Shown: positions 27,950 to 47,583 of the stretch, in pieces
Layout: every line of letters starts with the position of its first letter
Position numbering within the stretch: the first letter of the stretch is position 1
Assembly (NCBI RefSeq): GCF_001677475.2
Contig: NZ_CP015229.1
Reading direction: 5' to 3' (one strand)
Length of the DNA stretch: 64,000 nt
Source: Escherichia coli
Lineage (GTDB): Bacteria > Pseudomonadota > Gammaproteobacteria > Enterobacterales > Enterobacteriaceae
Notes under the pieces: model-generated
The model's database searches: none
What the model saw: the letters and a program-made list of their open reading frames with translations, nothing else
Told to the model about the DNA's origin: nothing
Translations under genes and position numbers: made by a program

Positions 27950-28466
<517 letters not shown>

Positions 28467-30645: not shown

Positions 30646-31923
30646 TTAGTGGGTAGCTAACTGTACTTGTGGTTCTTCATCTTTAACTTTGATAAGCGTC
30701 CACAACGCAATAGCACCAATAATGTCAAAGAAAGCCAGGGCAATAAAGAACGGCGCGAAGCCGATAATGTGAACGAATGCCCCGATGAACAGGTTGAAAA
30801 TCAACTGACCGCTCCACGCACAGGCTCCTGCCATACCCACTGCGGTAGCTACTTCGTCCTTTTTGAACAGATCGCCACCCAGAGTTGCTGCTACAGTAGA
30901 AAGACATTGATGCGAGAACGCGCCAATACTAATCAGTAATACGGCAATGTAGGGATTTTCGACAATACTCACCAGACCAATCGTCATCATAATGACGGCT
31001 GCAATAGTGAAGGTAATTCTTCGTGAGTTAATTAAACTCACGCCGCGATCGTGGAAGAACTTCGCGACAAAACCACTGGCTAAACAGCCGAGATCGCCCA
31101 GCAGGAAAGGCAGCCAGACGAACATGGCAATTTCTTTCAGGCTAAAATGCAGCGTTTCGACGAAGAAAATCGGCACCCAGAAGTTAATGGTTCCCCATGC
31201 CGGGTCTGCGAGAAAACGCGCGATGCCAATCCCCCAGAAATTACGTTGGCTGAGGATATGCTTGATTGACGTTTTTTCTTTCTTATCTGTTTTAAGATGC
31301 TGTTCTTGCCCTGATTCAATATAGTGGCGCTCTTCATCAGAAAGGCGTTTGGCATCTTTCGGATCTTTATAACAAAAGAACCAAAATAAAGCCGCGAGCA
31401 AAGCAAGGCTACCTGAAACAATAAACGCAAATTGCCAGCTATGAAACATAATGCACCAGGCAATCAACGGTGGAGCAAGCATCGCGCCGAGTGAGGTGCC
31501 CATATTGAAAACACCTGTCGCCACGCCACGCTCTTTTGCCGGAAACCATGTTGATGCGGTTTTTACACCTGCCGGAATTGCCGACGCTTCGCTGAAACCC
31601 ATCAGGGCGCGCATAAATGCCAGACCTGACCATGTTCCGGTTAGTGCATGGCCCATTGTCGCCAGGCCCCAAATTGCGGCACATATCGCAAAACTTAACT
31701 TCAGACCTACGGTATCAATAAAGAAGCCCATTACCGGTTGCCCTAATGTATAGGCCAACTGGAATGCACTGACAATCCATGAATATTGTTCTTTGGTTAT
31801 TCCGGTTGTCTCCATAATCGTTGGAGCCGCAATACCTAACGCCGTTCTGTCCAGATAATTGATTACAGTGATAAAGCATACGAGGGCAATCATATGCCAT
31901 CGATAATTCTTTATTTTATTCAT
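30646..31923 (-). CDS. MFS transporter, anion:cation symporter (ACS) type (hexuronate/galactonate/tartrate-permease-like)
   Basis: 425 aa, about 12 hydrophobic segments, N-terminal INYLDRTALGIAAP motif; AAGG SD 7 nt upstream. Confidence 0.75.
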   Translation of the reverse strand: MNKIKNYRWHMIALVCFITVINYLDRTALGIAAPTIMETTGITKEQYSWIVSAFQLAYTLGQPVMGFFIDTVGLKLSFAICAAIWGLATMGHALTGTWSGLAFMRALMGFSEASAIPAGVKTASTWFPAKERGVATGVFNMGTSLGAMLAPPLIAWCIMFHSWQFAFIVSGSLALLAALFWFFCYKDPKDAKRLSDEERHYIESGQEQHLKTDKKEKTSIKHILSQRNFWGIGIARFLADPAWGTINFWVPIFFVETLHFSLKEIAMFVWLPFLLGDLGCLASGFVAKFFHDRGVSLINSRRITFTIAAVIMMTIGLVSIVENPYIAVLLISIGAFSHQCLSTVAATLGGDLFKKDEVATAVGMAGACAWSGQLIFNLFIGAFVHIIGFAPFFIALAFFDIIGAIALWTLIKVKDEEPQVQLATH

Positions 31924-32015
31924 TTTTAAACCTTTTAATTATATTAATAAACCCTGGTTGTTGGTATTTCCATGTAATAGGCAATAAAAATCAGGTACAG
32001 AGAAAATATTGAAAA

Positions 32016-34088
32016 TTATTGTGTGTAAATGTCTCCCTTTAAAAAGTCTGGCCAGTTTTTTTCAAAGTAAATACCGTTAATACACGGTTGCATACGTAAA
32101 GACTTTACTTCGGTAATAAAAGAACCTTGCGAATATTGAATTGTTAATTTGTGATTTTTATCTTCAGCGAGTTCAGAGCGAAAACGCCATTCTTCTTTTA
32201 CGCCGCGACGAGTTTGTGGTAGGCATTTGCCTTGTGGATCAATAACCATCCGCGCCCCACGACTGCCGCCACCAGCATCAATATAATGCGTTAATTGTGT
32301 TAATACCGCGGCAGAAGTCAGCGCCATATGCCGCCACATAAACAGCTCGGAAACTTCACCCACATGTTTGATTGCCAATCCATGCCGTTGGACAAATTCG
32401 TTCAATAGCAGGGCATCGCGAGTGGCGCGTCGGACTTTATCGGCATGGCAAATAAATCCCGCATAGTCAGACATTCGTGCCTGAATTTTTTCTCTCACAA
32501 CCGACAACGGCATCCCGGTCCCGTTATCGTGCGCCTGAGTAATGATCTCTCTTATAGAAGCCAGTGCCGGAGCTGCCAGCTGTGCTATATCTCCATCAAT
32601 ATTCCGCTTTTGCGTGCAACCAATAAAACGTGCCAGACGCACGGCAAAAACCTGCCCGGCATTCAATGCCGCACCACCAGGGCGAGTGACGCCGTGTGTG
32701 CCAGCAACTTCCCCCACTGCAAAACAACCGGGCAGAGATGTTTGTCCCCAGATATCCACTTCAATGCCGCCATTCATATGCTGATTATTCATGGCAAACT
32801 GCAATGGCTGCGTGGTGAGATCGTAACCGTGCATCTTATACAGCGAGATAGACAGCGGATTCATTCGTTGCAGTCGTTCGATGGGCGATGGCGCCAGGGC
32901 GTCGTTATTTTCCAGATACGCGCGAACGTCGTCGTCCAGTCGTTCTAATGAGAATGGCAGGTCACCCGGCACAGGTTCAGGATTGCGATTGAAATCCATA
33001 AATACCTGACGCCCTGATTGCTGCTCTTGCGCCACCGCCATATCTAACAAGCTGGAGCCAAAATCCATTACCCGCGTGGCGTGGAACGGCCACTGATAGC
33101 CTTTACGGAAGATGTTTGAAGCCAGCTCCTGGGTGGTGCGATAGTAATCTGCGAGGAAGTTATACTCGTTGCCCTCGGCATCCACGGAATAGATATATGG
33201 GATCACTTGTACATAGGTGCCGGACAAATTCCACGGAAACGTGCTGCGCGGCGTGCCTATACCAAACTGGCTTTCGGTCAGATTAGTTAGTGTCAGGCCT
33301 TCCTCCAGCGCCAGCCCCAGCGAGCCAAAACATTTGTGTGGGTACACACTGTCGCGATAAAGCTCGCCCGGCCCGCCTGTTGCCAGTACCACATTGGGCG
33401 CAGTCACAATTGCCAGCCCCCACGGGTTATGGGCGCGGGAACCGGTTGCGAGGATAGCCCCGGCCACACGATCTTCGCCGTTTTCACCGCGTTGATGCAG
33501 CAGTTTAATCACCGTTGCACTGGTCAACAGTGGGATGGCGAGGCGCTGCACTTCTTCGAGCAATACTTTCACCATCAGACGAGAAGTGCGCGGCCCACAG
33601 GAGGTTGCGCGTCCGGCTTCGTCATGGTCGGTCTGATAACGGAGAATTGCACCATAGCGATCTTCCGGTAATTCCAGACCGAGATATTGCAGCCCGCCAA
33701 GGGTATGTAGGGAACCGACCGCTTCGACATACGCCGTGTCGTGATCCATCGCACCGCCGCTCGCCAGTGCTTCAGCAAGTTTTGCGAAGTTATCGCCGTT
33801 GCCCGCCGTTGCGGCGGTAAACAGCGTCTGTTTATCGGAACCGGAGCAGGCCGATGTTCCCATGTATAACCCGGCGGTGGCGATTAGCACATTTTGCTGG
33901 CGACGTTTCAGTTCAACCGCCGCACGTAATCCTGCCGCGCCGCTACCAACGACCAGAGCATCTGTTTGCCAGAGCGGGTAATCAACACCGTCCACCGTGA
34001 CAATTGACGTTGGCTCTGCTGACACAAAACCCTTCGGGAAAGTGACGTGCGTCAGCGCATCGAGGATGGCGTCATCAGTCTGGCTCAT
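32016..34088 (-). CDS. FAD-dependent oxidoreductase, fumarate-reductase/succinate-dehydrogenase flavoprotein-like, with extra C-terminal region
   Basis: 690 aa; N-terminal dinucleotide fold VVGSGAAGLRAAVEL; start overlaps upstream gene stop (ATGA). Confidence 0.7.
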   Translation of the reverse strand: MSQTDDAILDALTHVTFPKGFVSAEPTSIVTVDGVDYPLWQTDALVVGSGAAGLRAAVELKRRQQNVLIATAGLYMGTSACSGSDKQTLFTAATAGNGDNFAKLAEALASGGAMDHDTAYVEAVGSLHTLGGLQYLGLELPEDRYGAILRYQTDHDEAGRATSCGPRTSRLMVKVLLEEVQRLAIPLLTSATVIKLLHQRGENGEDRVAGAILATGSRAHNPWGLAIVTAPNVVLATGGPGELYRDSVYPHKCFGSLGLALEEGLTLTNLTESQFGIGTPRSTFPWNLSGTYVQVIPYIYSVDAEGNEYNFLADYYRTTQELASNIFRKGYQWPFHATRVMDFGSSLLDMAVAQEQQSGRQVFMDFNRNPEPVPGDLPFSLERLDDDVRAYLENNDALAPSPIERLQRMNPLSISLYKMHGYDLTTQPLQFAMNNQHMNGGIEVDIWGQTSLPGCFAVGEVAGTHGVTRPGGAALNAGQVFAVRLARFIGCTQKRNIDGDIAQLAAPALASIREIITQAHDNGTGMPLSVVREKIQARMSDYAGFICHADKVRRATRDALLLNEFVQRHGLAIKHVGEVSELFMWRHMALTSAAVLTQLTHYIDAGGGSRGARMVIDPQGKCLPQTRRGVKEEWRFRSELAEDKNHKLTIQYSQGSFITEVKSLRMQPCINGIYFEKNWPDFLKGDIYTQ

Positions 34089-35626
34089 GCGTCCTCCATT
34101 GGCGTAAACAGGCTACTTTCCATCAGGCGCGGCTGGTTGATAATTGGACGGAAAGCCATGAACGGCAGAATGTCGCGGTCAATCTCCACGCCCGGCGCGA
34201 TTTCAATTAATTCAACGCCTTCTGCCGTTAACTGAAACACCGCGCGTTCAGTGATATACAACACTTCCTGACCGCTGTGCTGTGCGTAGGCGGCGCTAAA
34301 AGTGATTTTTTCCACCTGAGTAACCAGTTTAGGGATTTGACCTGACTGGGCGATATGCAAGCCATCTGGCGTTACATCAATCTTGCTGCCTTTGGCGTCG
34401 AACGTGCCGCAGAACACCACCTTACGGGCGTTTTGCGCAATTTCGAGAAATCCGCCGGGGCCAATCAGATTGCCATTGAGATGGGAGACGTTGACGTTAC
34501 CGTACTGATCCATCTCTCCCATGCCGAGGAAGGTGATATCGATCCCTCCGCCACTGTAGAACTCAAATTGATCGAGTGATGGAATAATGGCATCGGCGTT
34601 GCGGGCGCAGCCGAAAAACGCATCATCCAGCATCATACCGTTATGCACGCCTTGCTCGACGCTCAGCCATAAACTTTGGTAAGGCACGCCTTCGCGCAGC
34701 GCTACTCCTGGAATGCCGCCGGGAATACCAAAGCCAAAGTTGGTTGAAGCGCCAGCTACCAGTTCGCGTGCTGCCCGACGGGCAATCAGGCGACGTACCG
34801 GATGACTAACCAGTTCAATAGCGTCGTTAGAACTCAGACGGCGATGTTGGCCGCTGATGGTCAGGTCGTAACCGCCAAGATAGGTTTGTGGCTGTTCGCG
34901 GTGTTCAACGATGCCATCAACCAGAATGCCCGGTAATTTGACTCGGCGTGGTTCAATCGCGCCAGCTTCCAGCACATCGCGTACCTGTACAAACACTTTG
35001 CCGCCGCTGTTGTGTGCTGCCAGCGCCATGGAATAGCTATCCATATCAATCGCTTCTTCTTCAAGGCTGACGTTGCCCCGAGGATCGGCATAAGTGCCAC
35101 GCAAAATCGCGTAATCGACTTTGAAAGGGCGATAACGAAGTTTGGTTTCACCGTCGATTTCAATCAGTTCTACCAGGTCGTCGGTAGTGCATTCATTCGA
35201 CTTACCGCCGCCATTGCGTGGATCAACAAACGATCCCAGCCCAACGTGGGTAAAAAGCCCCGGACGTCCGGCGCCGATCTCCCGTAGCAGTGCCTGAATC
35301 ACGCCACCAGGAAAACAATAGGCTTCAATCGCGTTATTTTTTACCAGCGCCTGCATTTTGGGTGACCAGGTAAAGTGTCCGGCAATAATGCGTTTGAGCA
35401 TTTCAGCATGAGCGAAGCGGTTCGTGCCTTTGCAGTCGCGATCGCCAATGCCCAGCGAGTGGATTAATGTCAGATCGCGCGGGTGTCCGGTTTGCAGGAA
35501 GCGCGCTTCAATGGCTGCCAGAATATGGTCGGCTTCCACCATGCCGCCGCCGTTACCGCTAATGGCAATGGTTGCGCCATCCTGAATTTGCGCCGCCAGT
35601 GCCTCGGCGGTTGTTATCTTACGCAT
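34085..35626 (-). CDS. CoA-transferase, family I-like (YdiF/propionate-CoA-transferase-like)
   Basis: 513 aa; overall resemblance to two-domain family I CoA-transferases; assignment by eye, needs HMM confirmation. Confidence 0.6.
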   Translation of the reverse strand: MRKITTAEALAAQIQDGATIAISGNGGGMVEADHILAAIEARFLQTGHPRDLTLIHSLGIGDRDCKGTNRFAHAEMLKRIIAGHFTWSPKMQALVKNNAIEAYCFPGGVIQALLREIGAGRPGLFTHVGLGSFVDPRNGGGKSNECTTDDLVELIEIDGETKLRYRPFKVDYAILRGTYADPRGNVSLEEEAIDMDSYSMALAAHNSGGKVFVQVRDVLEAGAIEPRRVKLPGILVDGIVEHREQPQTYLGGYDLTISGQHRRLSSNDAIELVSHPVRRLIARRAARELVAGASTNFGFGIPGGIPGVALREGVPYQSLWLSVEQGVHNGMMLDDAFFGCARNADAIIPSLDQFEFYSGGGIDITFLGMGEMDQYGNVNVSHLNGNLIGPGGFLEIAQNARKVVFCGTFDAKGSKIDVTPDGLHIAQSGQIPKLVTQVEKITFSAAYAQHSGQEVLYITERAVFQLTAEGVELIEIAPGVEIDRDILPFMAFRPIINQPRLMESSLFTPMEDA

Positions 35627-35635
35627 ACAATTTCC

Positions 35636-36412
35636 TTAGTGATTATGGAAGCTCACGCTACTTTTTTCGGCAAATGCCTGCGTCGCCTGCTGGCAATCCT
35701 GAGTGGCGGACATTAATCCAGCCAGTAACTGGTGTGGGTATTCAGCGTGTTTATTTTCCAGTGCCAGAATCAGCTGCTTAATATGCGCCAGTGCCACCGG
35801 ACCACATTTTTCCAGCTGCGCTAACTGGTTCGCCATCCAGCTTTCCACCTGTTCTTTTTCTACTACTTCATCAATTAAATTCGCCGCCTGGGCTTCATGC
35901 GCCGTCAGACGTTTACCTAGCATCAGCATCTGGCGACCGACCACTGGGCCGACCTGATTAATCACGCGTTCAATGCCCATCCAGCCAGGCACCATGCCGA
36001 GCATGACTTCCGGGTTAGAAAATTTCGCGCTGGGGCGAGCGATTCGAATATCGCAGCACAAGGCAAGTTCAATACCGCCGCCGATGGTATGACCGTTGAG
36101 ATTCGCAACCGTTAATTGCGGTAAATTGCGCAGGCGATTAAAAACGTCATTGCCGCGTTTAATCCATTTTCTGCCCATATCTAATGGCGAATAGGCCGAC
36201 CACGATTTAATATCACCGCCCGCACAAAAGAATTTATCGCCGATTGCCGTTAATTCGACTAATCGTAATGTGGTGTCGTTTTCAATTTCATTTAAATAAT
36301 GGTCGAGAGATTCAATCATCTCTTCGTTAATAGCATGACATTTCTCTTCACGGTTCAACGTCAGGCGGCAGGAAGCCGCCGCTCTGCTGAACAGAACGGG
36401 TTGGTCACTCAT
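35636..36412 (-). CDS. enoyl-CoA hydratase/isomerase (crotonase fold)
   Basis: 258 aa; crotonase signatures FCAGGDIKSW and GGGIELALCCD, plus PE motif (SNPEVMLGMVPG). Confidence 0.8.
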   Translation of the reverse strand: MSDQPVLFSRAAASCRLTLNREEKCHAINEEMIESLDHYLNEIENDTTLRLVELTAIGDKFFCAGGDIKSWSAYSPLDMGRKWIKRGNDVFNRLRNLPQLTVANLNGHTIGGGIELALCCDIRIARPSAKFSNPEVMLGMVPGWMGIERVINQVGPVVGRQMLMLGKRLTAHEAQAANLIDEVVEKEQVESWMANQLAQLEKCGPVALAHIKQLILALENKHAEYPHQLLAGLMSATQDCQQATQAFAEKSSVSFHNH

Positions 36413-36421
36413 GATTATTCC

Positions 36422-37264
36422 TTAGCAATAATTCGCGATGCGATCGACGCTAATATCCAGCGTGTTGTTAATATCTTTCTGCCACCAGTACGGTGAGAAT
36501 ATTTCCAGTTCAATAGCGCCATTAAATCCGGCGTTTTCAACCAGTCGACGAATTGACGGAATATTTATCACGCCATCTCCCGGCATTCCCCGGTCATTGA
36601 CCAGATCGGTGGTCGGCACTAACCAGTCGGAAACATGAAACGCGAGAATACGTTTTCCGGCGCGCAGGAGCTGGCTGGCCAGATCCGGATCCCACCAGAC
36701 ATGGTAAACATCCACAGCCACGCCGAGGCCAAATTCGCCATCGGGATCGAGTTCATCACACCAGTCCAGCGCCTGGCGTAACGTGCACAGGCAAGAGCGA
36801 TCGGCGGCGGTCATTGGGTGCAGTGGCTCCAGCGCAATCGGCACGCCAACGTCTTTCGAATGTGGCAGTAACTGGCGTATCCCTTGTTTCACCTGTTCCC
36901 GTGCTTCATACAGATCTTTTGTGCCCTGCGGTAACCCGCCAACCACCTGCATATAACAGGCGGCGTTCAGCACCGCTGCGTCGTCCAGCGCCCGGCGGTT
37001 ATCATCAATTGCCAGTTTGCGTTCCGCCAGCGTCGGCGCGGTGTAGTAGGTGCTACGGCATAAACCGGAAACGCGCATGTTATTGACGGCAAGCTGGCGG
37101 GCGATCTGCTGAAGATCTTCACCCTGCAACTCTCTGCGCCAGGGGGCGATCGCACCGATACCGCGTGCGGCACAGGCATCAATAATGGCGGGTAGCGGCG
37201 TTTTATAGCCCAGTGTTGCGGTATTGATACTGAATAAATCCGGGCGTTGTAACAGATCTCTCAT
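36422..37264 (-). CDS. xylose-isomerase-like TIM-barrel protein (sugar phosphate isomerase/epimerase or dehydratase family)
   Basis: 280 aa; resemblance to AP-endonuclease-2/xylose-isomerase-like TIM barrels by eye; needs HMM confirmation. Confidence 0.55.
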   Translation of the reverse strand: MRDLLQRPDLFSINTATLGYKTPLPAIIDACAARGIGAIAPWRRELQGEDLQQIARQLAVNNMRVSGLCRSTYYTAPTLAERKLAIDDNRRALDDAAVLNAACYMQVVGGLPQGTKDLYEAREQVKQGIRQLLPHSKDVGVPIALEPLHPMTAADRSCLCTLRQALDWCDELDPDGEFGLGVAVDVYHVWWDPDLASQLLRAGKRILAFHVSDWLVPTTDLVNDRGMPGDGVINIPSIRRLVENAGFNGAIELEIFSPYWWQKDINNTLDISVDRIANYC

Positions 37265-37273
37265 GATTCAGCC

Positions 37274-38065
37274 TCAGAAGCGCGGCATACTTAAGCCGCC
37301 GTCGATGGCGACCGCCTGACCACAGGTGTAAATCAGTTTACCTTCCGCCATCGCGCGGACGGTGGAGGCAATATCAGCCGGATAACCCCAACGTCCCCAC
37401 GGCACCAGACCTTTGGCAATCAGTTCGTCGTAATAAGCCGTTGCTGGAATAGTCATATCGGTTTTGATGAGACCAGGGCGCACTTCATAGACGCCAATTT
37501 GTTCGTTGCAAAGGCGAGCAGCAAACAGACGAGCAGCGGCAGAAACGGCGGTTTTGGCAATTGTGTATTCGCCGCGATTCATCGCCAGCATGATGGCGTT
37601 GATGGAACTGACAAAAATAATTGAGCGGTGCGGGAATTCTGTTTCTGGTTTTGGCTGTGCGAGCAGACGTTTACTGAATGCCTGTGCAAGGAAGAACGGT
37701 GCGCGGGTGTTAATGGCAATATTTTGGTCGAAGCTGTCTGGTTCCAGGTCGAGAAGGTCACCGCGTTTTTTCACTGAAATGCCTGCGTTGTTGAGCAGGC
37801 AGTCCAGACGTCCCCACTGGTTTTGCGCTGCGTCGAGCATCTCTTCATGCAGGGAGAGATCGCCAACATCGGCAGGGAAGCAAATCACTTCCACGCCTTC
37901 CGCCAGACATTCTTGTTGTGTGACATGTAATTTTTCAACGCTATCGGCATCCGGACGATCATTAATCAGCAGATTAAATCCGCCACGCGCAAGCTCCAGC
38001 GCACAGCCCTTTCCAATACCACGAGCGGCTCCGGTAATCACGGCAACAGGACGAGTGGATTTCAT
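37274..38065 (-). CDS. short-chain dehydrogenase/reductase (SDR)
   Basis: 263 aa; TGAARGIGKG cofactor motif, NNAG, catalytic Ser and YxxxK (YTIAK). Confidence 0.85.
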   Translation of the reverse strand: MKSTRPVAVITGAARGIGKGCALELARGGFNLLINDRPDADSVEKLHVTQQECLAEGVEVICFPADVGDLSLHEEMLDAAQNQWGRLDCLLNNAGISVKKRGDLLDLEPDSFDQNIAINTRAPFFLAQAFSKRLLAQPKPETEFPHRSIIFVSSINAIMLAMNRGEYTIAKTAVSAAARLFAARLCNEQIGVYEVRPGLIKTDMTIPATAYYDELIAKGLVPWGRWGYPADIASTVRAMAEGKLIYTCGQAVAIDGGLSMPRF

Positions 38066-38133
38066 ACAATAGCTCTCTTTTTTTGAATTTTGTTTCCTTA
38101 GTGATGATTAGCTTGCGACTGGAGGATAAAAAG

Positions 38134-38155
38134 ATCAACCATCTAGTTGGTTGAT
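38134..38155. promoter_or_regulatory. candidate TetR-family operator (perfect 8-6-8 palindrome)
   Basis: ATCAACCA-tctagt-TGGTTGAT in the 212-bp divergent intergenic region between the SDR operon and the TetR gene. Confidence 0.45.
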
Positions 38156-38277
38156 ATGCGATGACGATCACAGGACATTTGATAACCTGATGAAAGTACA
38201 AGTTTTTGCCCTTTTTTCTGAAGCTGAAATCAAATCAGGTTATGATAGTCACCACGAAGAGGTCGTGGGGAAGCGTT

Positions 38278-38925
38278 ATGTATATTGATACCAGCAACGT
38301 ACAGAGCCTGAAGGAAAAGCTGCTGTTATGCGCGGTTAATGAATTTGCCGAATATGGTTATGAAGGGGCCAGGGTCGATAATATTGTTAAGTCTGCGGGG
38401 TGTAGTAAACAGACGGTTTATCACCACTTTGGTAATAAAGAAAATTTATTTATTGAAGTACTGGAATATACCTGGAACGATATTCGAAAAAAAGAAAAGG
38501 CCCTTGATTTCTCAGATCTTCCGCCACAAAAAGCCATTGAGAAAATTATTGATTTTACATGGGATTATTATATTGCTAATCCCTGGTTTTTAAAAATTGT
38601 GCATAGTGAAAATCAAAGTAAAGGTGTGCATTATGCAAAATCACAGCGTCTCTTAGAAATTAACCATGCGCACTTGCAGTTAATGGAATCCTTATTGGAG
38701 GAAGGGAAGAAACACAATATTTTTAAGCCAGATATCGACCCATTGCAGGTGAATATTAATATTGCTGCGCTTGGGGGATATTATTTGATCAACCAGCATA
38801 CGCTTGGCCTGGTTTATCACATCAGTATGGTTTCACCCCAGGCACTGGAAGCCAGACGTAAGGTCATCAAAGAGACGCTCCTTAGCTGGCTTTTGGTTGA
38901 CCCCTCATCTACCGCGCACGAATAA
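38278..38925 (+). CDS. TetR/AcrR-family transcriptional regulator
   Basis: 215 aa from ATG 38278 (GGGGAAG SD upstream); N-terminal [31 protein letters not shown]; track ORF is N-extended. Confidence 0.8.
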
Positions 38926-39547
38926 AACTGCCATCCGGCTGACGGGTAAACAGGACCTGTTGATTATTCCCCGTATCAATGGTTAAGCCCGTCACCACGC
39001 CGCTGGCGTTCTGGCGGATTTTCACCATCTGCCCGTTTTGCAAATTACTCAGCGGCTTATCCGCGCCTTCTACCTGCGCCATTGCATAGACATCGGTAGC
39101 GGGCAGTCCGTGGTCGCGGAACAGCTGCGCCATCGTTTTACCGGGTTCGACACGGTAAGAGCGCCATTGATTATCAATTCCGCTATCTGGCTGGAATGGT
39201 TGCGTTTGGGTGGTTTGCGGCTGCTCTTCTGGCTGGCCTTCCTGTATTGGTTCTGGAGCGACCGGGGCCACCTGATCAGGATCATTTTGTGGCGTAACTA
39301 GCTGCGCCCGCAGCTGTTCTTCTGTCGGCAGTTGTGATTGCGACTGAATATCTAACTGCGCTTCACGCGTCACCACCGGCGCGTTGGGCGTATCATCAGA
39401 TGGAAGCAGAAATCCGACCACCAATACAATGGCGGCAATAATGATCCCCCGACGATGCATCGGCGGCAGCGGGTCCATGAAGCGAAAATTGTCCGGCGCG
39501 TGCCAGACTTTCTCCAGGGTTGGTTTTAGTTCAAAGCGCCCGGGCAT
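38909..39547 (-). CDS. ytfB: OapA/LysM-domain cell-division protein YtfB
   Basis: 212 aa from [18 protein letters not shown], strong AGGAGG SD; Pro/Gln-rich linker and C-terminal OapA-like domain. Confidence 0.85.
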
Positions 39548-39764
39548 GGTTTCCTCCTGCTCCGCGTCTTGTTCCTCAATCATAGCCTATGAATAAGCTA
39601 ACGCTATGATGTCCGTGGTAAACCCGCCTTTATTATATTCATACGGGATATTGCTATTGTTTCTTTTTCCCCGGGATTTGTCATCATTCCCGCGACAAAG
39701 TTTTACCCAAAGAAGTGTGGCTGATATGCTGCCCGCTACTTTATACCCTAAGAAAGGAAATACG

Positions 39765-40385
39765 ATGACCACCCCAACTTTTGACACCATCGAAGCGCAA
39801 GCAAGCTACGGCATTGGTTTGCAGGTAGGGCAACAACTGAGTGAATCTGGCCTGGAAGGGCTGCTGCCAGAAGCACTGGTTGCAGGCATTGCTGATGCGC
39901 TGGAAGGCAAACATCCGGCTGTTCCGGTTGATGTGGTGCACCGCGCGCTGCGTGAAATCCACGAACGCGCCGATGCCGTTCGTCGTCAGCGTTTCCAGGC
40001 GATGGCTGCTGAAGGTGTGAAATACCTGGAAGAAAACGCCAAAAAAGAAGGTGTAAATAGCACCGAATCTGGCCTGCAATTCCGCGTGATCAACCAGGGT
40101 GAAGGCGCAATTCCGGCACGTACCGACCGCGTTCGTGTTCATTACACCGGAAAACTGATCGACGGCACCGTGTTTGACAGCTCCGTCGCTCGCGGCGAGC
40201 CAGCTGAATTCCCGGTTAACGGCGTGATCCCTGGCTGGATTGAAGCACTGACTCTGATGCCGGTAGGTTCTAAATGGGAACTGACTATCCCGCAGGAACT
40301 GGCATATGGCGAGCGTGGCGCAGGCGCGTCCATCCCTCCGTTCAGCACCCTGGTGTTTGAAGTCGAACTGCTGGAAATCCTCTAA
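39765..40385 (+). CDS. fklB: FKBP-type peptidyl-prolyl cis-trans isomerase
   Basis: 206 aa from [20 protein letters not shown] domain at C-terminus. Confidence 0.9.
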
Positions 40386-40692
40386 GCAGCGCATTCTGTT
40401 CCCCTCGAGCCAGAGGGGAGCAGGCATTCAGCAATAAACCCTTCAGTTTGCCAAACGGCGCTATTTTGTGTTGCAAAGACCCCGTAAGCGTGTATTTTTG
40501 TGAGCTGTTTCGCGTTATCACCGTGATATGACACTCACTTTAAACATAAAATTAACATTAGATCTAAATCTTAGTATTCATCCCGCGTATTGTTACCTAA
40601 TATCGATGAGTCCCGATACAGATTCGTCGTATCATAGACTGACTAAAGGCCGTAGAGCCTGAACAACACAGACAGGTACAGGAAGAAAAAAC

Positions 40693-42105
40693 ATGGTAGA
40701 TCAGGTAAAAGTCGTTGCCGATGATCAGGCTCCGGCTGAACAGTCGCTACGGCGCAATCTCACAAACCGACATATTCAGCTTATTGCCATTGGCGGTGCC
40801 ATTGGCACAGGGTTGTTTATGGGGTCCGGCAAAACGATTAGCCTTGCCGGGCCGTCGATCATTTTCGTTTATATGATCATTGGTTTTATGCTCTTTTTCG
40901 TGATGCGGGCAATGGGGGAATTGCTGCTTTCGAATCTGGAATACAAATCTTTTAGTGACTTCGCTTCCGATTTACTCGGGCCGTGGGCAGGATATTTCAC
41001 CGGCTGGACTTACTGGTTCTGCTGGGTTGTAACCGGTATGGCAGACGTGGTGGCGATCACGGCTTATGCTCAGTTCTGGTTCCCCGATCTCTCCGACTGG
41101 GTCGCCTCGCTGGCGGTGATAGTGCTGCTGCTGACGCTCAACCTCGCCACCGTGAAAATGTTCGGTGAGATGGAGTTCTGGTTTGCGATGATCAAAATCG
41201 TCGCCATTGTGTCGCTGATTGTCGTCGGCCTGGTCATGGTGGCGATGCACTTTCAGTCACCGACCGGTGTGGAAGCGTCATTCGCGCATTTGTGGAATGA
41301 CGGCGGCTGGTTCCCGAAAGGTTTAAGTGGCTTCTTTGCCGGATTCCAGATAGCGGTTTTCGCTTTCGTGGGGATTGAGCTGGTAGGTACAACAGCTGCG
41401 GAAACCAAAGATCCAGAGAAATCACTGCCACGCGCGATTAACTCAATTCCGATCCGTATCATTATGTTCTACGTCTTCGCGCTGATTGTGATTATGTCCG
41501 TGACGCCGTGGAGTTCGGTAGTCCCGGAGAAAAGCCCGTTTGTTGAACTGTTCGTGTTGGTGGGTCTGCCTGCTGCCGCCAGCGTGATCAACTTTGTGGT
41601 GCTGACCTCTGCCGCTTCTTCCGCTAACAGCGGCGTCTTCTCTACCAGTCGTATGCTGTTTGGTCTGGCGCAGGAAGGTGTGGCACCGAAAGCGTTCGCT
41701 AAACTCTCTAAGCGCGCAGTACCCGCGAAAGGGCTGACCTTCTCTTGTATCTGTCTGCTCGGCGGCGTGGTGATGCTGTATGTGAATCCCAGCGTGATTG
41801 GCGCGTTTACGATGATTACAACCGTTTCCGCGATTCTGTTTATGTTCGTCTGGACGATTATCCTTTGCTCGTACCTGGTGTATCGCAAACAGCGTCCGCA
41901 CCTGCATGAGAAATCAATCTACAAGATGCCGCTCGGCAAGCTGATGTGCTGGGTATGTATGGCATTCTTTGTGTTCGTGGTCGTGCTGCTGACACTGGAA
42001 GATGATACCCGCCAGGCGCTGCTGGTTACCCCGCTGTGGTTTATCGCTCTGGGGCTGGGCTGGTTGTTTATTGGTAAGAAGCGGGCTGCTGAACTGCGGA
42101 AATAA
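40693..42105 (+). CDS. cycA: D-serine/D-alanine/glycine APC-family transporter
   Basis: 470-aa polytopic membrane ORF. Confidence 0.93.
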   Translation: MVDQVKVVADDQAPAEQSLRRNLTNRHIQLIAIGGAIGTGLFMGSGKTISLAGPSIIFVYMIIGFMLFFVMRAMGELLLSNLEYKSFSDFASDLLGPWAGYFTGWTYWFCWVVTGMADVVAITAYAQFWFPDLSDWVASLAVIVLLLTLNLATVKMFGEMEFWFAMIKIVAIVSLIVVGLVMVAMHFQSPTGVEASFAHLWNDGGWFPKGLSGFFAGFQIAVFAFVGIELVGTTAAETKDPEKSLPRAINSIPIRIIMFYVFALIVIMSVTPWSSVVPEKSPFVELFVLVGLPAAASVINFVVLTSAASSANSGVFSTSRMLFGLAQEGVAPKAFAKLSKRAVPAKGLTFSCICLLGGVVMLYVNPSVIGAFTMITTVSAILFMFVWTIILCSYLVYRKQRPHLHEKSIYKMPLGKLMCWVCMAFFVFVVVLLTLEDDTRQALLVTPLWFIALGLGWLFIGKKRAAELRK

Positions 42106-42120
42106 CCGCATTATCATGCT

Positions 42121-42145
42121 GGATGGCGCAATGCCATCCAGCTTT
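42121..42145. terminator. Bidirectional terminator between convergent cycA and ytfE
   Basis: GGATGGCgcaaTGCCATCC hairpin followed by AGCTTTT. Confidence 0.55.
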
Positions 42146-42149
42146 TAGA

Positions 42150-42812
42150 TCACTCACCCGCCAGTGCGCGCGGGAACAGCACATTATTTTCCAGACTAAT
42201 GTGATCCATCAGGTCATCAATCAATTCATTGATACCGTTATACATCGCTTTCCAGGTGGTGCAGGCTTCCGGCGGCGGTGTGACATTATTGGTGGTGTGT
42301 TTAATCACTTCCAGCAGTTCGCCCGCTTCATCGTGCTCGCTTTCCATTACGCTGATTGGCCCCATTGCCTGGCTGCCCATGCCTTGTTTGATCATCGGGA
42401 AGAGGATCTGCTCTTCTTTCATCATGTGGCTGGAAAGCTCTTCATGCAGCATAGTCAGGTATTTTGTCAGCCCTTTTGGCACGCTCGGTTTGTCGGCGTG
42501 AACGCGCTCGACTTTAGTCGCTTGCAGGATCAGCTCCGGCAGTTGCTCGCGGTGACGATCGTGGTAGCGCACGATGATATGGTCGATGATTTCTGCCAGC
42601 GGGGCGCTACGCCAGTCTTTCTCAATCGGTTGTTCAGCAAGCTTTGCCAGCTCAGCTTCAATGACCTCAACATCCAGCTCTTTACGTGCCGCCGCACGCG
42701 CCAGCGTTTGCTTACCGCCGCAGCAGTAATCCATATCATATTTACGAAACAGCGCTGAAGCGCGAGGAATAGAGAGCGCCAGTTCACCTAAAGGTTGGTC
42801 GCGATAAGCCAT
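42150..42812 (-). CDS. ytfE: iron-sulfur cluster repair di-iron protein YtfE (RIC)
   Basis: 220-aa ORF with hemerythrin-like His/Glu residues. Confidence 0.9.
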
Positions 42813-42919
42813 AGCTGATACCTCATTCTTAATAAGATAAGATGTATTTTAAATGCATCTTTAAGGCGAATGCTATAACCCTTACGTAGCAGAGGCTTAT
42901 TTAACTCACAGCCAGCATG

Positions 42920-43894
42920 TCAACTTTCTGAGACAGATTCAGTTAAAGGTTTTTCCGGTTTTGCTCTGACTGCAATGACCACGCCAACCACTAACAGCGC
43001 GATACCGCTCAGCGTCATCAGCGGCGGCATTTGCTGGCGGAGTAAAAAGGTGTACAGCAAACCTGCCAGTGTTTCGAAAACAATCAGCGGCCCGAGAATC
43101 ACTGTCGGTAATCGCTGGCTGGCGACGTTCCAGCAGAGTGCGCCGACCCATGAGCAAAGCACGGCTATCGCAATCATCAGACTAATAAACACCAGCGGGC
43201 GGGGGCCAAAGGGTAGGGAGAAGTCCGGCGTTTGCGTATTCAGCCAGTAACAAGCGACGAGATAGCCGATAAGTGAAACCGGCAGTGTGACCAGCGCCTG
43301 CGCCGTTGCCCACATCATCGGATGTTTGTCGGGATTTTCCCGCAGCCAGCGGGCGTTGCGCAGGGCATACCATGCCCAGCAGACCACGGAAACTAACGCC
43401 AGCACGATGCCAGAGGTATAACGTGCCCAGTCAAAATCGGGGAGTCCGTGGTTTAACTCAGCAATATTCACGCACGCCAGGCCGATGCCAATACAAATCA
43501 GTGCCGGGGCGAGTCTTCCCCACGCGAGTTTGCCGTCGCGCTGGCTATAAAGCAGATTGGCAAAGACAGGAATCACCACCGGCAGGGTGCCGATAATCAT
43601 CGTGGAAACAGGCGCGCCAGTACGTTGAATGGCACTGGCAAGGCAGAAGTAATAAATGAGGTTGCCCATCATAGTGAGCATCAAGGCGGTAAGCCAGTCC
43701 CGACGCGCCAACTGACGCAAACGCACGCGTCCCAGCCAGGCAATGGGTAGCGCAATTAACCCTAACGCCAGATAACGCCCCATCGACTGCAACATCGCCG
43801 GGTATTCCGGCACAATCAACGGCCCGACAAAAATAAGCCCCCACATCAACCCTGCTAACAGGGCGTACAGCACGCCGCTAATCATTACTGGCAT
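42920..43894 (-). CDS. ytfF: EamA/DMT-family inner-membrane transporter YtfF
   Basis: About 10 hydrophobic segments; start could be ATG 43894 or 43885. Confidence 0.8.
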   Translation of the reverse strand: MPVMISGVLYALLAGLMWGLIFVGPLIVPEYPAMLQSMGRYLALGLIALPIAWLGRVRLRQLARRDWLTALMLTMMGNLIYYFCLASAIQRTGAPVSTMIIGTLPVVIPVFANLLYSQRDGKLAWGRLAPALICIGIGLACVNIAELNHGLPDFDWARYTSGIVLALVSVVCWAWYALRNARWLRENPDKHPMMWATAQALVTLPVSLIGYLVACYWLNTQTPDFSLPFGPRPLVFISLMIAIAVLCSWVGALCWNVASQRLPTVILGPLIVFETLAGLLYTFLLRQQMPPLMTLSGIALLVVGVVIAVRAKPEKPLTESVSES

Positions 43895-43992
43895 CCATTG
43901 ATCTGTCAGAAGAAAGTTCAGGAAGCAGACATGATTGCTCCCGGCATCCCGTCATTATCAGAGAGGATGCGGGAGGATGCCACTTTAATTAA

Positions 43993-44853
43993 CTAGTTAT
44001 TAACATTAAAAAGATTGCTTACGCTTTCGGCTAACGTTGTCGTCGGGCGACCAATCAGTTTACTCAGCGTTTTGCTGTCATCAAACAGACCGCCTTTTGA
44101 CGCGCCAACGTCAGAATCCGCCAGCATATCCGCCAGTCCGTCGGGCAGTCCGACGCTTTTCAGCGCAGCGGCGAAATCGGCTTCGCTCAGATTTTGATAG
44201 GTAACCTGTTTGCCGCTCTGTTTGGTCAGCTCTGCCGCTAACTGTGTCAACGTCCAGGCGCTGTCGCCCGCCAGTTCGTAAACCTTGCCTTCGTGACCGG
44301 CTTCGCTAATCACGCGCGAGGCAGCGGCTGCATAATCTGCCCGCGTTGCTGAGGCAATTTTGCCATTGCCCGCCGCACCGATAAATACGCCGTGTTCCAC
44401 TGCTGCCGGGGCGCTGGCGAGGTAGTTTTCGGTGTACCAGCCGTTGCGCAGAAGGGTGTAAACGATGCCAGAATCAGCCAGCATTTTCTCCGTCTCGATG
44501 TGCTCATCGGCGAGGCCGAGCGGGGAGGTATCTGCATGTAGCAGGCTGGTATAAGCGATAAATTTCACGCCAGCCGTCTTTGCGGCATTAATAACATTAC
44601 GATGCTGCGGGGCACGTTGACCCACTTCGCTGGAAGAGATCAGCAGTAGTTTTTCCACTCCCTGAAGTGCAGATGTCAGTGCGGCTTCATCGCCGTAGTC
44701 AGCCTGACGCACGGTAATGCCTTGTGCTGCCAGGGCCTGGGCTTTTGCCGGATTACGAACGATAGCCACTATTTGGCTGGCAGGAACAGTTTTCATCAAG
44801 GATTCAATAACATAGTGACCAAGTTGGCCAGTGGCACCAGTAATAGCGATCAT
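43993..44853 (-). CDS. qorB: NmrA-like NAD(P)H:quinone oxidoreductase
   Basis: 286-aa ORF with N-terminal Rossmann motif ITGATGQLG. Confidence 0.85.
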   Translation of the reverse strand: MIAITGATGQLGHYVIESLMKTVPASQIVAIVRNPAKAQALAAQGITVRQADYGDEAALTSALQGVEKLLLISSSEVGQRAPQHRNVINAAKTAGVKFIAYTSLLHADTSPLGLADEHIETEKMLADSGIVYTLLRNGWYTENYLASAPAAVEHGVFIGAAGNGKIASATRADYAAAASRVISEAGHEGKVYELAGDSAWTLTQLAAELTKQSGKQVTYQNLSEADFAAALKSVGLPDGLADMLADSDVGASKGGLFDDSKTLSKLIGRPTTTLAESVSNLFNVNN

Positions 44854-44941
44854 GGGAAGTCTCCATCGTTTTGTCTTGTGTTTAAATACGCTAACACCTA
44901 AACTTACTTTTAGTAAGTACGCACAAAAAGGTAAGTATGAA

Positions 44942-45322
44942 ATGAGTCAGGTTAGCCTGTCGCAACAACTGAAAGAGGGAAATCTCTTTGCGGAACAGTG
45001 CCCGTCGCGCGAGGTGTTGAAACACGTCACCAGCCGTTGGGGGGTATTGATTCTGGTGGCGCTACGCGAAGGCACTCATCGCTTTAGCGACCTGCGGCGC
45101 AAAATGGGCGGGGTGAGTGAAAAGATGCTTGCGCAGTCGTTACAGGCGCTAGAGCAGGATGGTTTTCTTAACCGTATAGCGTATCCGGTGGTGCCGCCGC
45201 ATGTGGAATATAGCCTCACGCCGTTGGGCGAGCAGGTGAGCGAAAAGGTTGCTGCACTGGCGGACTGGATTGAGTTGAATTTGCCCGAGGTGTTGGCGGT
45301 GCGGGATGAACGTGTGGCATAA
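44942..45322 (+). CDS. ytfH: HxlR-type transcriptional regulator YtfH
   Basis: 126 aa from MSQVSLSQQLKEG; divergent from qorB. Confidence 0.85.
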   Translation: MSQVSLSQQLKEGNLFAEQCPSREVLKHVTSRWGVLILVALREGTHRFSDLRRKMGGVSEKMLAQSLQALEQDGFLNRIAYPVVPPHVEYSLTPLGEQVSEKVAALADWIELNLPEVLAVRDERVA

Positions 45323-45323
45323 C

Positions 45324-45420
45324 TGCCGGATGCGCTGCGCTTATCTGGTCTACGGTGCATGGCTTGTAGGGCGGATAAGATGCGCCAGCATCGCATCCGC
45401 CAATAAATGCCGGATGCGGT
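45324..45420. repeat. REP elements
   Basis: GCCGGATGCGCTGCGCTTATCTGG and GGCGGATAAGATGCGCCAGCATCGCATCCGCC. Confidence 0.55.
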
Positions 45421-45450
45421 TGATGATTTATAGGCCGAAAAAGAAGTGTA

Positions 45451-47394
45451 TTACTTACTCAAATCCACCTGATAAATCGCAAACCCGATATCATCGGTCG
45501 CGACTTTATTCATCGGATATTGCCCTTTCTCTTTAATAAACGCTGCGGCTTTATCTGATGGAGAGGTTTCGAAACGGATATCCAGTTTCTTATCGCCAGC
45601 AATCGGTGCTAAACGCCAGTTGTTATCTGCCGCCGGGTGAATTTCCCCCGCACGTTTCGACTCATCAGCAATCCACGCTGCCAGCACCGAGCGGTTCTCA
45701 TCCGGTGAAGCAAAAGCGATATGGCTGTCGCCCGTACCAGCAAATTTGCCGCCGTAAGCGCGATAGTTATTGGTGGCAACGAGGAACATGGCGTTCGGAT
45801 CAATGGGTTTACCGTTAAAGGTCAGGTTCTTAATCCGCTCTGCATTGGCATTAACCACCTGACATTCACCGTCATAACGGGCGGGTTGGGTAACATCAAT
45901 CTGATAATTCACACCATCAATAACATCAAAGTTATAAGTGCGGAAACCATCCCAGTTGATGAGTGACTGTGGTTTCGTGCTGTTAGGATCAATCTGGTTA
46001 AACTGTCCGGCGGAGCACTCCAGCCACTCTTTCACCTCTTTACCGCTGGCTTTCACCACAATCAGCGTATTGGGGTAGAGATAAAGATCGGCGGCATTAC
46101 GGAAGGTCAACTGGCCTTTTTCCACCTCCACATAGCTTGCCGGGTCATTTTTGCGACCACCAACTTTAAACGGTGCGGCAGCTGAAAGCACCGGCAGTTT
46201 TGCCAGATCCGGATCGCCCTGAATGTAATGTTCGACATACGCTTTTTGCGCGTTGTTCACGACTTGCACGGTCGGATCGTCCTGCACCAGCGCCAGATAG
46301 CTATACATATTGTCGGCAGATTTACCGATTGGCTTGCTGACAAACTGGCGTGTGGCATCGTGATCGGCTTTGAGTGTTTCTACCAGCTTGCTATCTTCCG
46401 CCGCGAGGGATTTTTTATTAGCGATGTCGTAAATCGGCCGTGCTTCCGCTTTCGCCTGCATCACCTGCCATTTACCGCTGTCATTACTGAGTTACAAGTC
46501 GACCACACCAAGATGATCGCCCCACATGCCCGGCATTACCGCCGGAACACCATTCAGCGTGCCTTTCGCGATATCAGCCCCTTCGATATCAGCAAAATCT
46601 TTACCTGGGAAAACGGCGTGAGCATGGCCAAACATAATGGCGTTAACGCCCGGAATTTCACTGAGGTAATAAACTGAGTTTTCCGCCATCACTTTATACG
46701 GATCGGCAGACAGCCCGGAATGCGCCAGAACGACAACGAGATCGGCACCTTTCTCACGCATTTCAGGCACGTATTTGCGCACAGTTTCTGTTATATCGTT
46801 AACGGTGACTTTGCCGGACAAATTGGCTTTATCCCACCCCATAATCTGCGGCGGCACCACGCCAATATAGCCAATCTTTAACGTCTGTTTTTTTCCGTCT
46901 TTATCGACCACTTCGGTGTCTTTAATTAAATACGGTGTAAACATGGGCTGTTTGGTTTTTGCGTCGATGACGTTGGCATTTACATAAGGGAATTTCGCTC
47001 CCGCCAGCGCATTTTTCAGGTAATCCAGACCGTAGTTAAACTCGTGGTTGCCAAGCGTGCCGACGGTATAGTCCAGCGTATTTAATGCCTTATAGACCGG
47101 GTGAATATCGCCTGCTTTTAAACCTTTCGCCGACATGTAATCTGCCAGCGGACTCCCCTGAATCAAATCGCCGTTATCGACCAGTACGCTGTTTTTCACT
47201 TCATTGCGGGCATCGTTAATCAGGCTTGCGGTACGTACCAGTCCGAATTTTTCCGTAGCGGTGTCTTTGTAATAATCGAAATCCATCATGTTGCTATGCA
47301 GATCAGTGGTTTCCATGATACGCAGATCGACCGTCGCTGCATTTACACTGGCGGCAATCAGCGTGGCCAGGAGCGTTGCGCTAAACTTAATCAT
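45451..47394 (-). pseudogene. cpdB: 2',3'-cyclic-nucleotide 2'-phosphodiesterase/3'-nucleotidase, interrupted by one in-frame TAA
   Basis: Track ORFs 46492..47403 and 45451..46464 are in the same frame; together 647 codons with one TAA at 46492-46494 (..[17 protein letters not shown]..). Confidence 0.8.
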
Positions 47395-47583
47395 CAGGGA
47401 CATCCTTTTATCATCGGGAATACGAAAGAAAAGGGAGAATAAACGTCTTACTTATAGAACAGTGAAGAATGCCACAATTTTACGCTTTGAAAATGATGAC
47501 ACTATCACAGTTGGCGCATTCATTAACGATAGGGTATAAGTAAAACAATAAGTTAACACCGCTCACAGAGACGAGGTGGAGAA

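Follow-up and report, generated by a model that had tools for sequence, protein, structure and literature searches.

The cpdB gene in this Escherichia coli sequence is interrupted by one premature ochre codon, and it is very probably a genuine, evolutionarily recent loss-of-function allele carried by a sub-clone within a rare lineage of E. coli. It lies on the minus strand of the window, by which we mean the whole 64,000-nucleotide stretch of DNA that was analyzed. On translation, the frame at 45451-47394 comprises 648 codons (647 plus the terminal stop), and its sole internal stop is TAA at codon 301, which appears on the plus strand as TTA at 46492-46494. An uninterrupted frame for the 647-aa precursor is therefore not present, and the two open reading frames found there, 46492..47403 and 45451..46464, share one frame. 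A preliminary description, made from the sequence alone, had reported two same-frame ORFs that together amount to 647 codons plus a stop and are separated by TAA at 46492-46494; its coordinates, frame and count were all reproduced by translation. The features of the locus are as follows.

45451..47394 (minus strand): cpdB pseudogene; ungapped full-length alignment to K-12 b4213, with the repaired protein passing TIGR01390 and NF006938
46492..46494 (minus strand): premature ochre codon TAA, codon 301; ancestral CAA (Gln) as in K-12, IAI1, Z142-6 and the sister genome; mutated base 46494
46495..47394 (minus strand): N-terminal fragment, codons 1-300; contains Pfam Metallophos 24-260, and the exact 300-aa protein is public
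47338..47394 (minus strand): signal peptide, codons 1-19; same as in K-12, with a 19-aa signal sequence according to PMC4905662
45451..46491 (minus strand): untranslated remainder, codons 302-647 plus stop; contains Pfam 5_nucleotid_C 357-549, strand 310-320 and helix 335-352 (AlphaFold2)
46459..46461 (minus strand): ATG codon 312 (lineage polymorphism T312M), start of a 336-aa C-terminal ORF without a signal peptide
46495..46497 (minus strand): Leu300 codon TTG (TTA in K-12, IAI1 and Z142-6); synonymous lineage polymorphism
47395..47583 (no strand assigned): divergent cpdB-cysQ intergenic region with the cpdB promoter and ribosome-binding site, intact; 189 of 189 bases as in K-12

Identity of the gene and its locus

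The window consists of E. coli backbone sequence that is collinear with K-12 between mutL and ytfQ, and the gene order ytfH-cpdB-cysQ matches that of K-12, IAI1 and Z142-6. When the stop is restored to Gln301, the protein scores 1243.4 bits against TIGR01390 (cut-off 883) and 1207 bits against NF006938 (cut-off 486), while each fragment alone falls below the TIGR01390 cut-off, at 540 and 667 bits. The score above the cut-off and the K-12 arrangement of neighbors confirm the earlier assignment of the gene as cpdB. In Pfam terms, the repaired protein consists of a Metallophos domain (24-260) and a 5_nucleotid_C domain (357-549); the stop separates the two, and only the first can be translated.

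Alignment with K-12 b4213 covers 1,944 of 1,944 nucleotides without a gap, at 96.45% nucleotide identity. Of the 69 mismatches, about 63 are synonymous and six are replacements, the stop included. The amino-acid differences are confined to positions 146, 219, 301, 312, 513 and 514, so that five polymorphisms (R146K, V219L, T312M, M513V and I514V) accompany the stop. Comparison with K-12 and with the sister genome described below revealed no lesion in the remainder of the gene downstream of codon 301.

Since the intergenic region and the signal peptide are those of K-12, transcription of cpdB and export of its product should persist. A scan of 45200-47700 for consensus promoters and terminators gave no match. 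As cpdB is convergent with ytfH and divergent from cysQ, no polar effect on the neighboring genes is expected.

Origin of the premature stop

Codons 300-301 read TTA CAA in K-12, IAI1 and Z142-6, and TTG TAA in the window. The most informative comparison is with a near-isogenic sister genome, GCA_016118575.1, whose contig DACZAT010000003.1 differs from the window by two SNPs in 21,944 bp, at 46494 and 49205. On the coding strand, base 46494 is C in the sister (CAA) and T in the window, and it is the sole difference between the two within cpdB, so TTG at codon 300 is common to both. A tandem AC-to-GT mutation, which the change from TTACAA to TTGTAA relative to K-12 might suggest, is thereby ruled out, the sister already having TTG CAA. 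Base 49205 of the window is shared by another lineage member, L007, and hence the stop is the only derived change of the window's sub-clone in this 22-kb stretch.

The event thus consisted of one C-to-T transition on the coding strand (G to A at plus-strand base 46494), turning Gln301 CAA into ochre TAA. That one C-to-T change in a CAA glutamine codon made the stop had been proposed beforehand, and CAA in K-12, IAI1, Z142-6 and the near-isogenic sister supports it; the last of these also supplies the comparison with other isolates of the lineage that had been suggested as a check. The internal-stop pattern is not due to chance, since it sets the gene apart in a defined way from both the intact orthologues and a near-identical sister. 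Judged from the sequence comparisons, TTG at Leu300 and T312M are polymorphisms that the lineage acquired earlier, apart from the inactivating event. Met312 is also carried by intact sister alleles, and the repaired protein (Gln301, Met312) is identical to a public protein (P0031) named as E. coli and found on at least 30 contigs.

Structural consequences of the truncation

After removal of the signal peptide, the fragment would comprise 281 aa with a mass of 30.6 kDa. It retains the metal-binding and catalytic residues D31, H33, D73, D76, N116, H117, H225, H257 and H259. Tyr440 and Tyr544, which form the substrate sandwich of the C domain, are encoded in frame but lie downstream of the stop and remain untranslated. 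The roles of the dimetal ligands, of the catalytic His117 and of Tyr440/Tyr544 are taken from PMC7922932.

The structural N domain extends further than the Pfam match, spanning residues 16-354 in PDB entries 3JYF and 5EQV (the Klebsiella and Yersinia orthologues). The AlphaFold2 model of the repaired protein (pLDDT 95.8, pTM 0.92) places strands at 294-303 and 310-320 and an interdomain linker helix at 335-352. In this model, the stop at 301 falls within strand 294-303, so that strand 310-320, helix 335-352 and the entire C domain are lost. Across 73 homologues, conservation is 90% or higher at L302, W309 and H345, three residues that lie downstream of the stop. The fragment also ends 54 residues before the C-terminus of CpdB_Ndom (aa 20-354), the smallest construct for which activity has been demonstrated. 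The preliminary description had stated that the fragment keeps its signal peptide and metallophosphatase domain and lacks the C-terminal substrate-binding domain of the 5'-nucleotidase type. The absence of the latter is clear, 5_nucleotid_C (357-549) lying beyond the stop. The signal peptide, the Pfam Metallophos segment and all metal and catalytic residues are indeed kept; the structural N domain, which runs to residue 354, is not whole.

Functional consequences and alternative explanations

Published work on the two halves of the enzyme frames what is lost. The isolated N domain, CpdB_Ndom, retains much of its phosphodiesterase activity toward 2',3'-cNMPs and bis-4-NPP but is nearly devoid of 3'-nucleotidase activity, with an efficiency loss that is 10^5-fold greater on 3'-AMP than on 2',3'-cAMP; CpdB_Cdom alone is inactive (PMC7922932). 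For cpdB mutants, neither 2',3'-cyclic nucleotides nor 3'-AMP can serve as a nutrient source (PMC4905662), and delta-cpdB strains are viable and in routine use (PMC9686202).

In the window's strain, the unchanged promoter region, start codon and signal peptide would allow the gene still to be transcribed and a 300-residue precursor to be made and exported. The product would end inside strand 294-303, without the second strand, the linker helix or the C domain, and, being shorter than the smallest active fragment, would most likely be misfolded and degraded, which would make the allele a null. Even a folded fragment would be devoid of 3'-nucleotidase activity, for which the C domain is needed (PMC7922932). 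Periplasmic 2',3'-cNMPs and 3'-NMPs would then probably no longer be converted to nucleoside and phosphate by the CpdB route, and a loss of periplasmic salvage of both 3'-NMPs and 2',3'-cNMPs is likely. The preliminary description had likewise considered such scavenging to be probably lost, which fits the enzymology reported for the isolated N domain (PMC7922932). At best, the fragment would act as a weak cNMP phosphodiesterase without release of nucleoside and phosphate. A split enzyme is not plausible, because the ORF restarting at ATG312, which gene callers do report on a Logan contig, would be without a signal peptide and catalytic site. The periplasmic acid phosphatase AphA also dephosphorylates 3'-nucleotides, and the 3'-NMP phenotype may therefore be partly masked.

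Three other explanations of the stop were weighed. A sequencing or assembly error in a strain that truly has CAA might be suspected from the fact that the near-identical sister genome has CAA, and a single-base error is possible in one assembly judged without its reads. Nevertheless, about 8-10 contigs from NCBI and Logan carry each of the exact 300-aa and 336-aa products, and Logan's assembly of run SRR25145098, which is independent, matches the window at 100% identity across 21,011 bp. This recurrence makes an error confined to a single genome very unlikely, and we regard an erroneous base call as having only a slight chance of being the explanation; the error that had been named as one possible refutation of the preliminary description is accordingly improbable. 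Restoration of full-length CpdB by an ochre suppressor tRNA or by efficient readthrough, which would leave the gene functional, is the least probable of the readings and close to negligible. The context, UAA followed by C, is not the strongest for termination and counts in favor of readthrough, and the tRNA evidence is confined to the 64-kb window, where a scan found no tRNA gene. Against it, the sister genomes simply have CAA, and we know of no recoding role for UAA in E. coli. Basal readthrough of UAA is about 10^-4 to 10^-3, and natural isolates seldom carry ochre suppressors, which impose a cost.

A third explanation accepts the stop and assigns the exported 281-residue fragment a changed function: it would work as a stand-alone 2',3'-cNMP phosphodiesterase that produces 3'-NMP without releasing nucleoside, so that the allele would not be a null. 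The retention of all metal ligands and of the catalytic His117, the intact promoter and signal peptide, and the activity of recombinant CpdB_Ndom on 2',3'-cNMPs and bis-4-NPP (PMC7922932) speak for this possibility. The natural fragment, however, falls 54 residues below the tested construct and ends inside a core beta-strand; strand 310-320 and the conserved L302 and W309 are missing, no truncation this large has been shown to fold, and the sequence bears no sign of selection for the fragment. We therefore consider an active fragment unlikely. An equally unlikely proposal, framed more broadly, is that the fragment serves as a 30.6-kDa cNMP phosphodiesterase lacking 3'-nucleotidase activity, or that the loss of cpdB was co-selected with the insertion in ytfQ described below, in a niche shift that sheds periplasmic scavenging. 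A recent loss-of-function allele remains the preferred reading.

Carriers, lineage and age of the allele

The roughly 8-10 carrier contigs could be repeat sampling of one clone; they indicate that the base call is reproducible and are not evidence of wide spread. An exact 33-nt pattern across the stop gave no match in 100,044 GTDB species representatives, a result to be expected because the lineage falls inside the E. coli species cluster.

Among the 5,426 complete RefSeq E. coli genomes, the lineage of the window has no representative, and it is known from draft genomes only, labelled E. coli by NCBI. The best identities in this set are 97.4% for cpdB, 98.1% for 39000-45300 and 95.1% for the 8-kb island described below. 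Because no complete E. coli genome comes closer than 97.4% at cpdB, the lineage may be deep-branching or belong to a cryptic clade. Divergence among members of the lineage is 0.3-0.5% (L007 and L008). Divergence from K-12 is unusually high at ulaC (93.1% identity), ulaD (94.9%), yjfM (95.1%) and rlmB (95.5%).

Apart from the stop, cpdB differs from K-12 by 63 synonymous changes and five replacements, and from the sister it has no derived change at all. This pattern of purifying selection, together with the absence of further derived changes relative to the sister, indicates that the inactivation is recent. On a very rough estimate from two SNPs in 22 kb, its age would be on the scale of decades to a few centuries.

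Other features of the window

Among the other K-12 genes that were compared in the window, the only one not intact is ytfQ (60267-63639), which is split by a 2,409-bp IS21-family element at 60674-63082. The element carries istA-like (60766-62265) and istB-like (62262-63017) ORFs and is flanked by a 7-bp target duplication, GTAAGTT. The product of ytfQ is the binding protein of the galactofuranose ABC transporter. In the sister GCA_016118575.1, ytfQ is intact and the sequence is otherwise 100% identical to the window across 50267-64000. As the sister has both CAA and an intact ytfQ, the cpdB stop and ytfQ::IS21 are both private to the window's sub-clone relative to it. By coordinate arithmetic, a 41-kb Logan carrier contig ends about a dozen bases from the IS junction, which suggests that this sample has the IS in ytfQ as well. 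Genome decay of the Shigella type was considered and ruled out, the other compared genes being intact except ytfQ and mutL being full length.

An island of about 8 kb (30646-38925) lies between yjfZ and ytfB and encodes an MFS transporter, a 690-aa FAD oxidoreductase, a CoA-transferase, an enoyl-CoA hydratase, a TIM barrel resembling sugar-phosphate isomerases, an SDR and a TetR regulator. Of the 5,426 complete E. coli genomes, 1,659 have this island, and their copies share only about 95% identity with that of the window. The K-12 'pseudogene' ytfA corresponds to the last 402 nt of the island's TetR gene (38524-38925), and K-12 therefore carries a deletion remnant. The chpS-chpB toxin-antitoxin pair, located between ytfP and ppa in K-12, is absent at 59048-59426.

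The gene ytfI (48536-49447) encodes 303 aa here and in Z142-6, as against 312 aa in K-12, from which it differs by 15 replacements among 28 differences. It holds the other SNP that separates the window from the sister (49205), with Y224 in the window and H224 in the sister, and it is split into two ORFs in the lineage member GCA_037967675.1 (L008, 7948-8859). Taken together, ytfI looks weakly constrained.

Rfam matches include the RpsF leader (27989-28073), STnc450 (52089-52146, minus strand) and naRNA4 (63672-63749). A further Rfam match, to the sRNA ES239 (47395-47517, plus strand; 157 bits against a gathering score of 62), lies in the cpdB-cysQ intergenic region, where it adjoins the cpdB start codon on the opposite strand. 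The ytfH-cpdB spacer (45323-45450) contains, as judged by eye, REP-like palindromic units of the GCCGGATGCG...CGCATCCGGC type.

Significance

The allele is an ordinary, recent nonsense pseudogene of a well-characterized, non-essential gene; it is of little importance beyond annotation and strain typing and implies no new mechanism. For annotation, the cpdB locus should be recorded as one pseudogene with an internal stop and not as two genes. For typing, the cpdB stop and ytfQ::IS21 together offer a handy marker by which to recognize a single sub-clone in an E. coli lineage that has been poorly sampled. Because cpdB has been reported to aid colonization in Salmonella and in avian-pathogenic E. 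coli, null alleles of natural origin might be useful as controls in colonization studies.

Comparison with known cpdB alleles and constructs

The reference for these comparisons is K-12 cpdB (b4213), which encodes the periplasmic 2',3'-cyclic-nucleotide 2'-phosphodiesterase/3'-nucleotidase. It shares with the window the 647 codons, the neighbors ytfH and cysQ, the signal peptide and the 189-bp upstream region, and it differs in having CAA at codon 301 where the window has TAA, besides the five polymorphisms.

Intact cpdB is the rule in E. coli: 80% or more of the gene is found in 5,403 of the 5,426 complete genomes, and an even sample of 40 genomes yielded 38 ungapped full-length copies, one IS1 insertion and one remnant. 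The insertion, in strain NH-21, is a natural inactivation by a mechanism different from the Q301 ochre codon, and the 21% remnant in strain 360D-1 is likewise not the Q301 ochre allele. Other independent cpdB lesions are hinted at by orphan C-terminal CpdB ORFs in the protein collection, whose first residue is M287 (17 contigs) or M513 (165 contigs) or which follow a frameshift (VEC74852.1). A literature search for cpdB as a pseudogene returned nothing relevant to E. coli. Loss of cpdB is thus rare but recurrent, and the present evidence does not distinguish drift from selection.

The closest experimental counterpart of the truncated product is CpdB_Ndom of Lopez-Villamizar et al. 2021 (PMC7922932), likewise a catalytic N-terminal portion from which the C-terminal specificity domain is missing; the natural fragment differs from it in ending at residue 300, so that the linker helix and some of the N-domain beta-sheet are absent. 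At the level of the organism, the same phenotype is expected as in laboratory cpdB nulls, namely the mutants of Beacham and Garrett 1980 and the Keio delta-cpdB strain: periplasmic 3'-nucleotidase and 2',3'-cNMP phosphodiesterase would be lost, and with them the use of their substrates as nutrients (PMC4905662). Unlike these, the allele described here is a natural point nonsense mutation in a wild clone, from which a truncated N-terminal product is possible.
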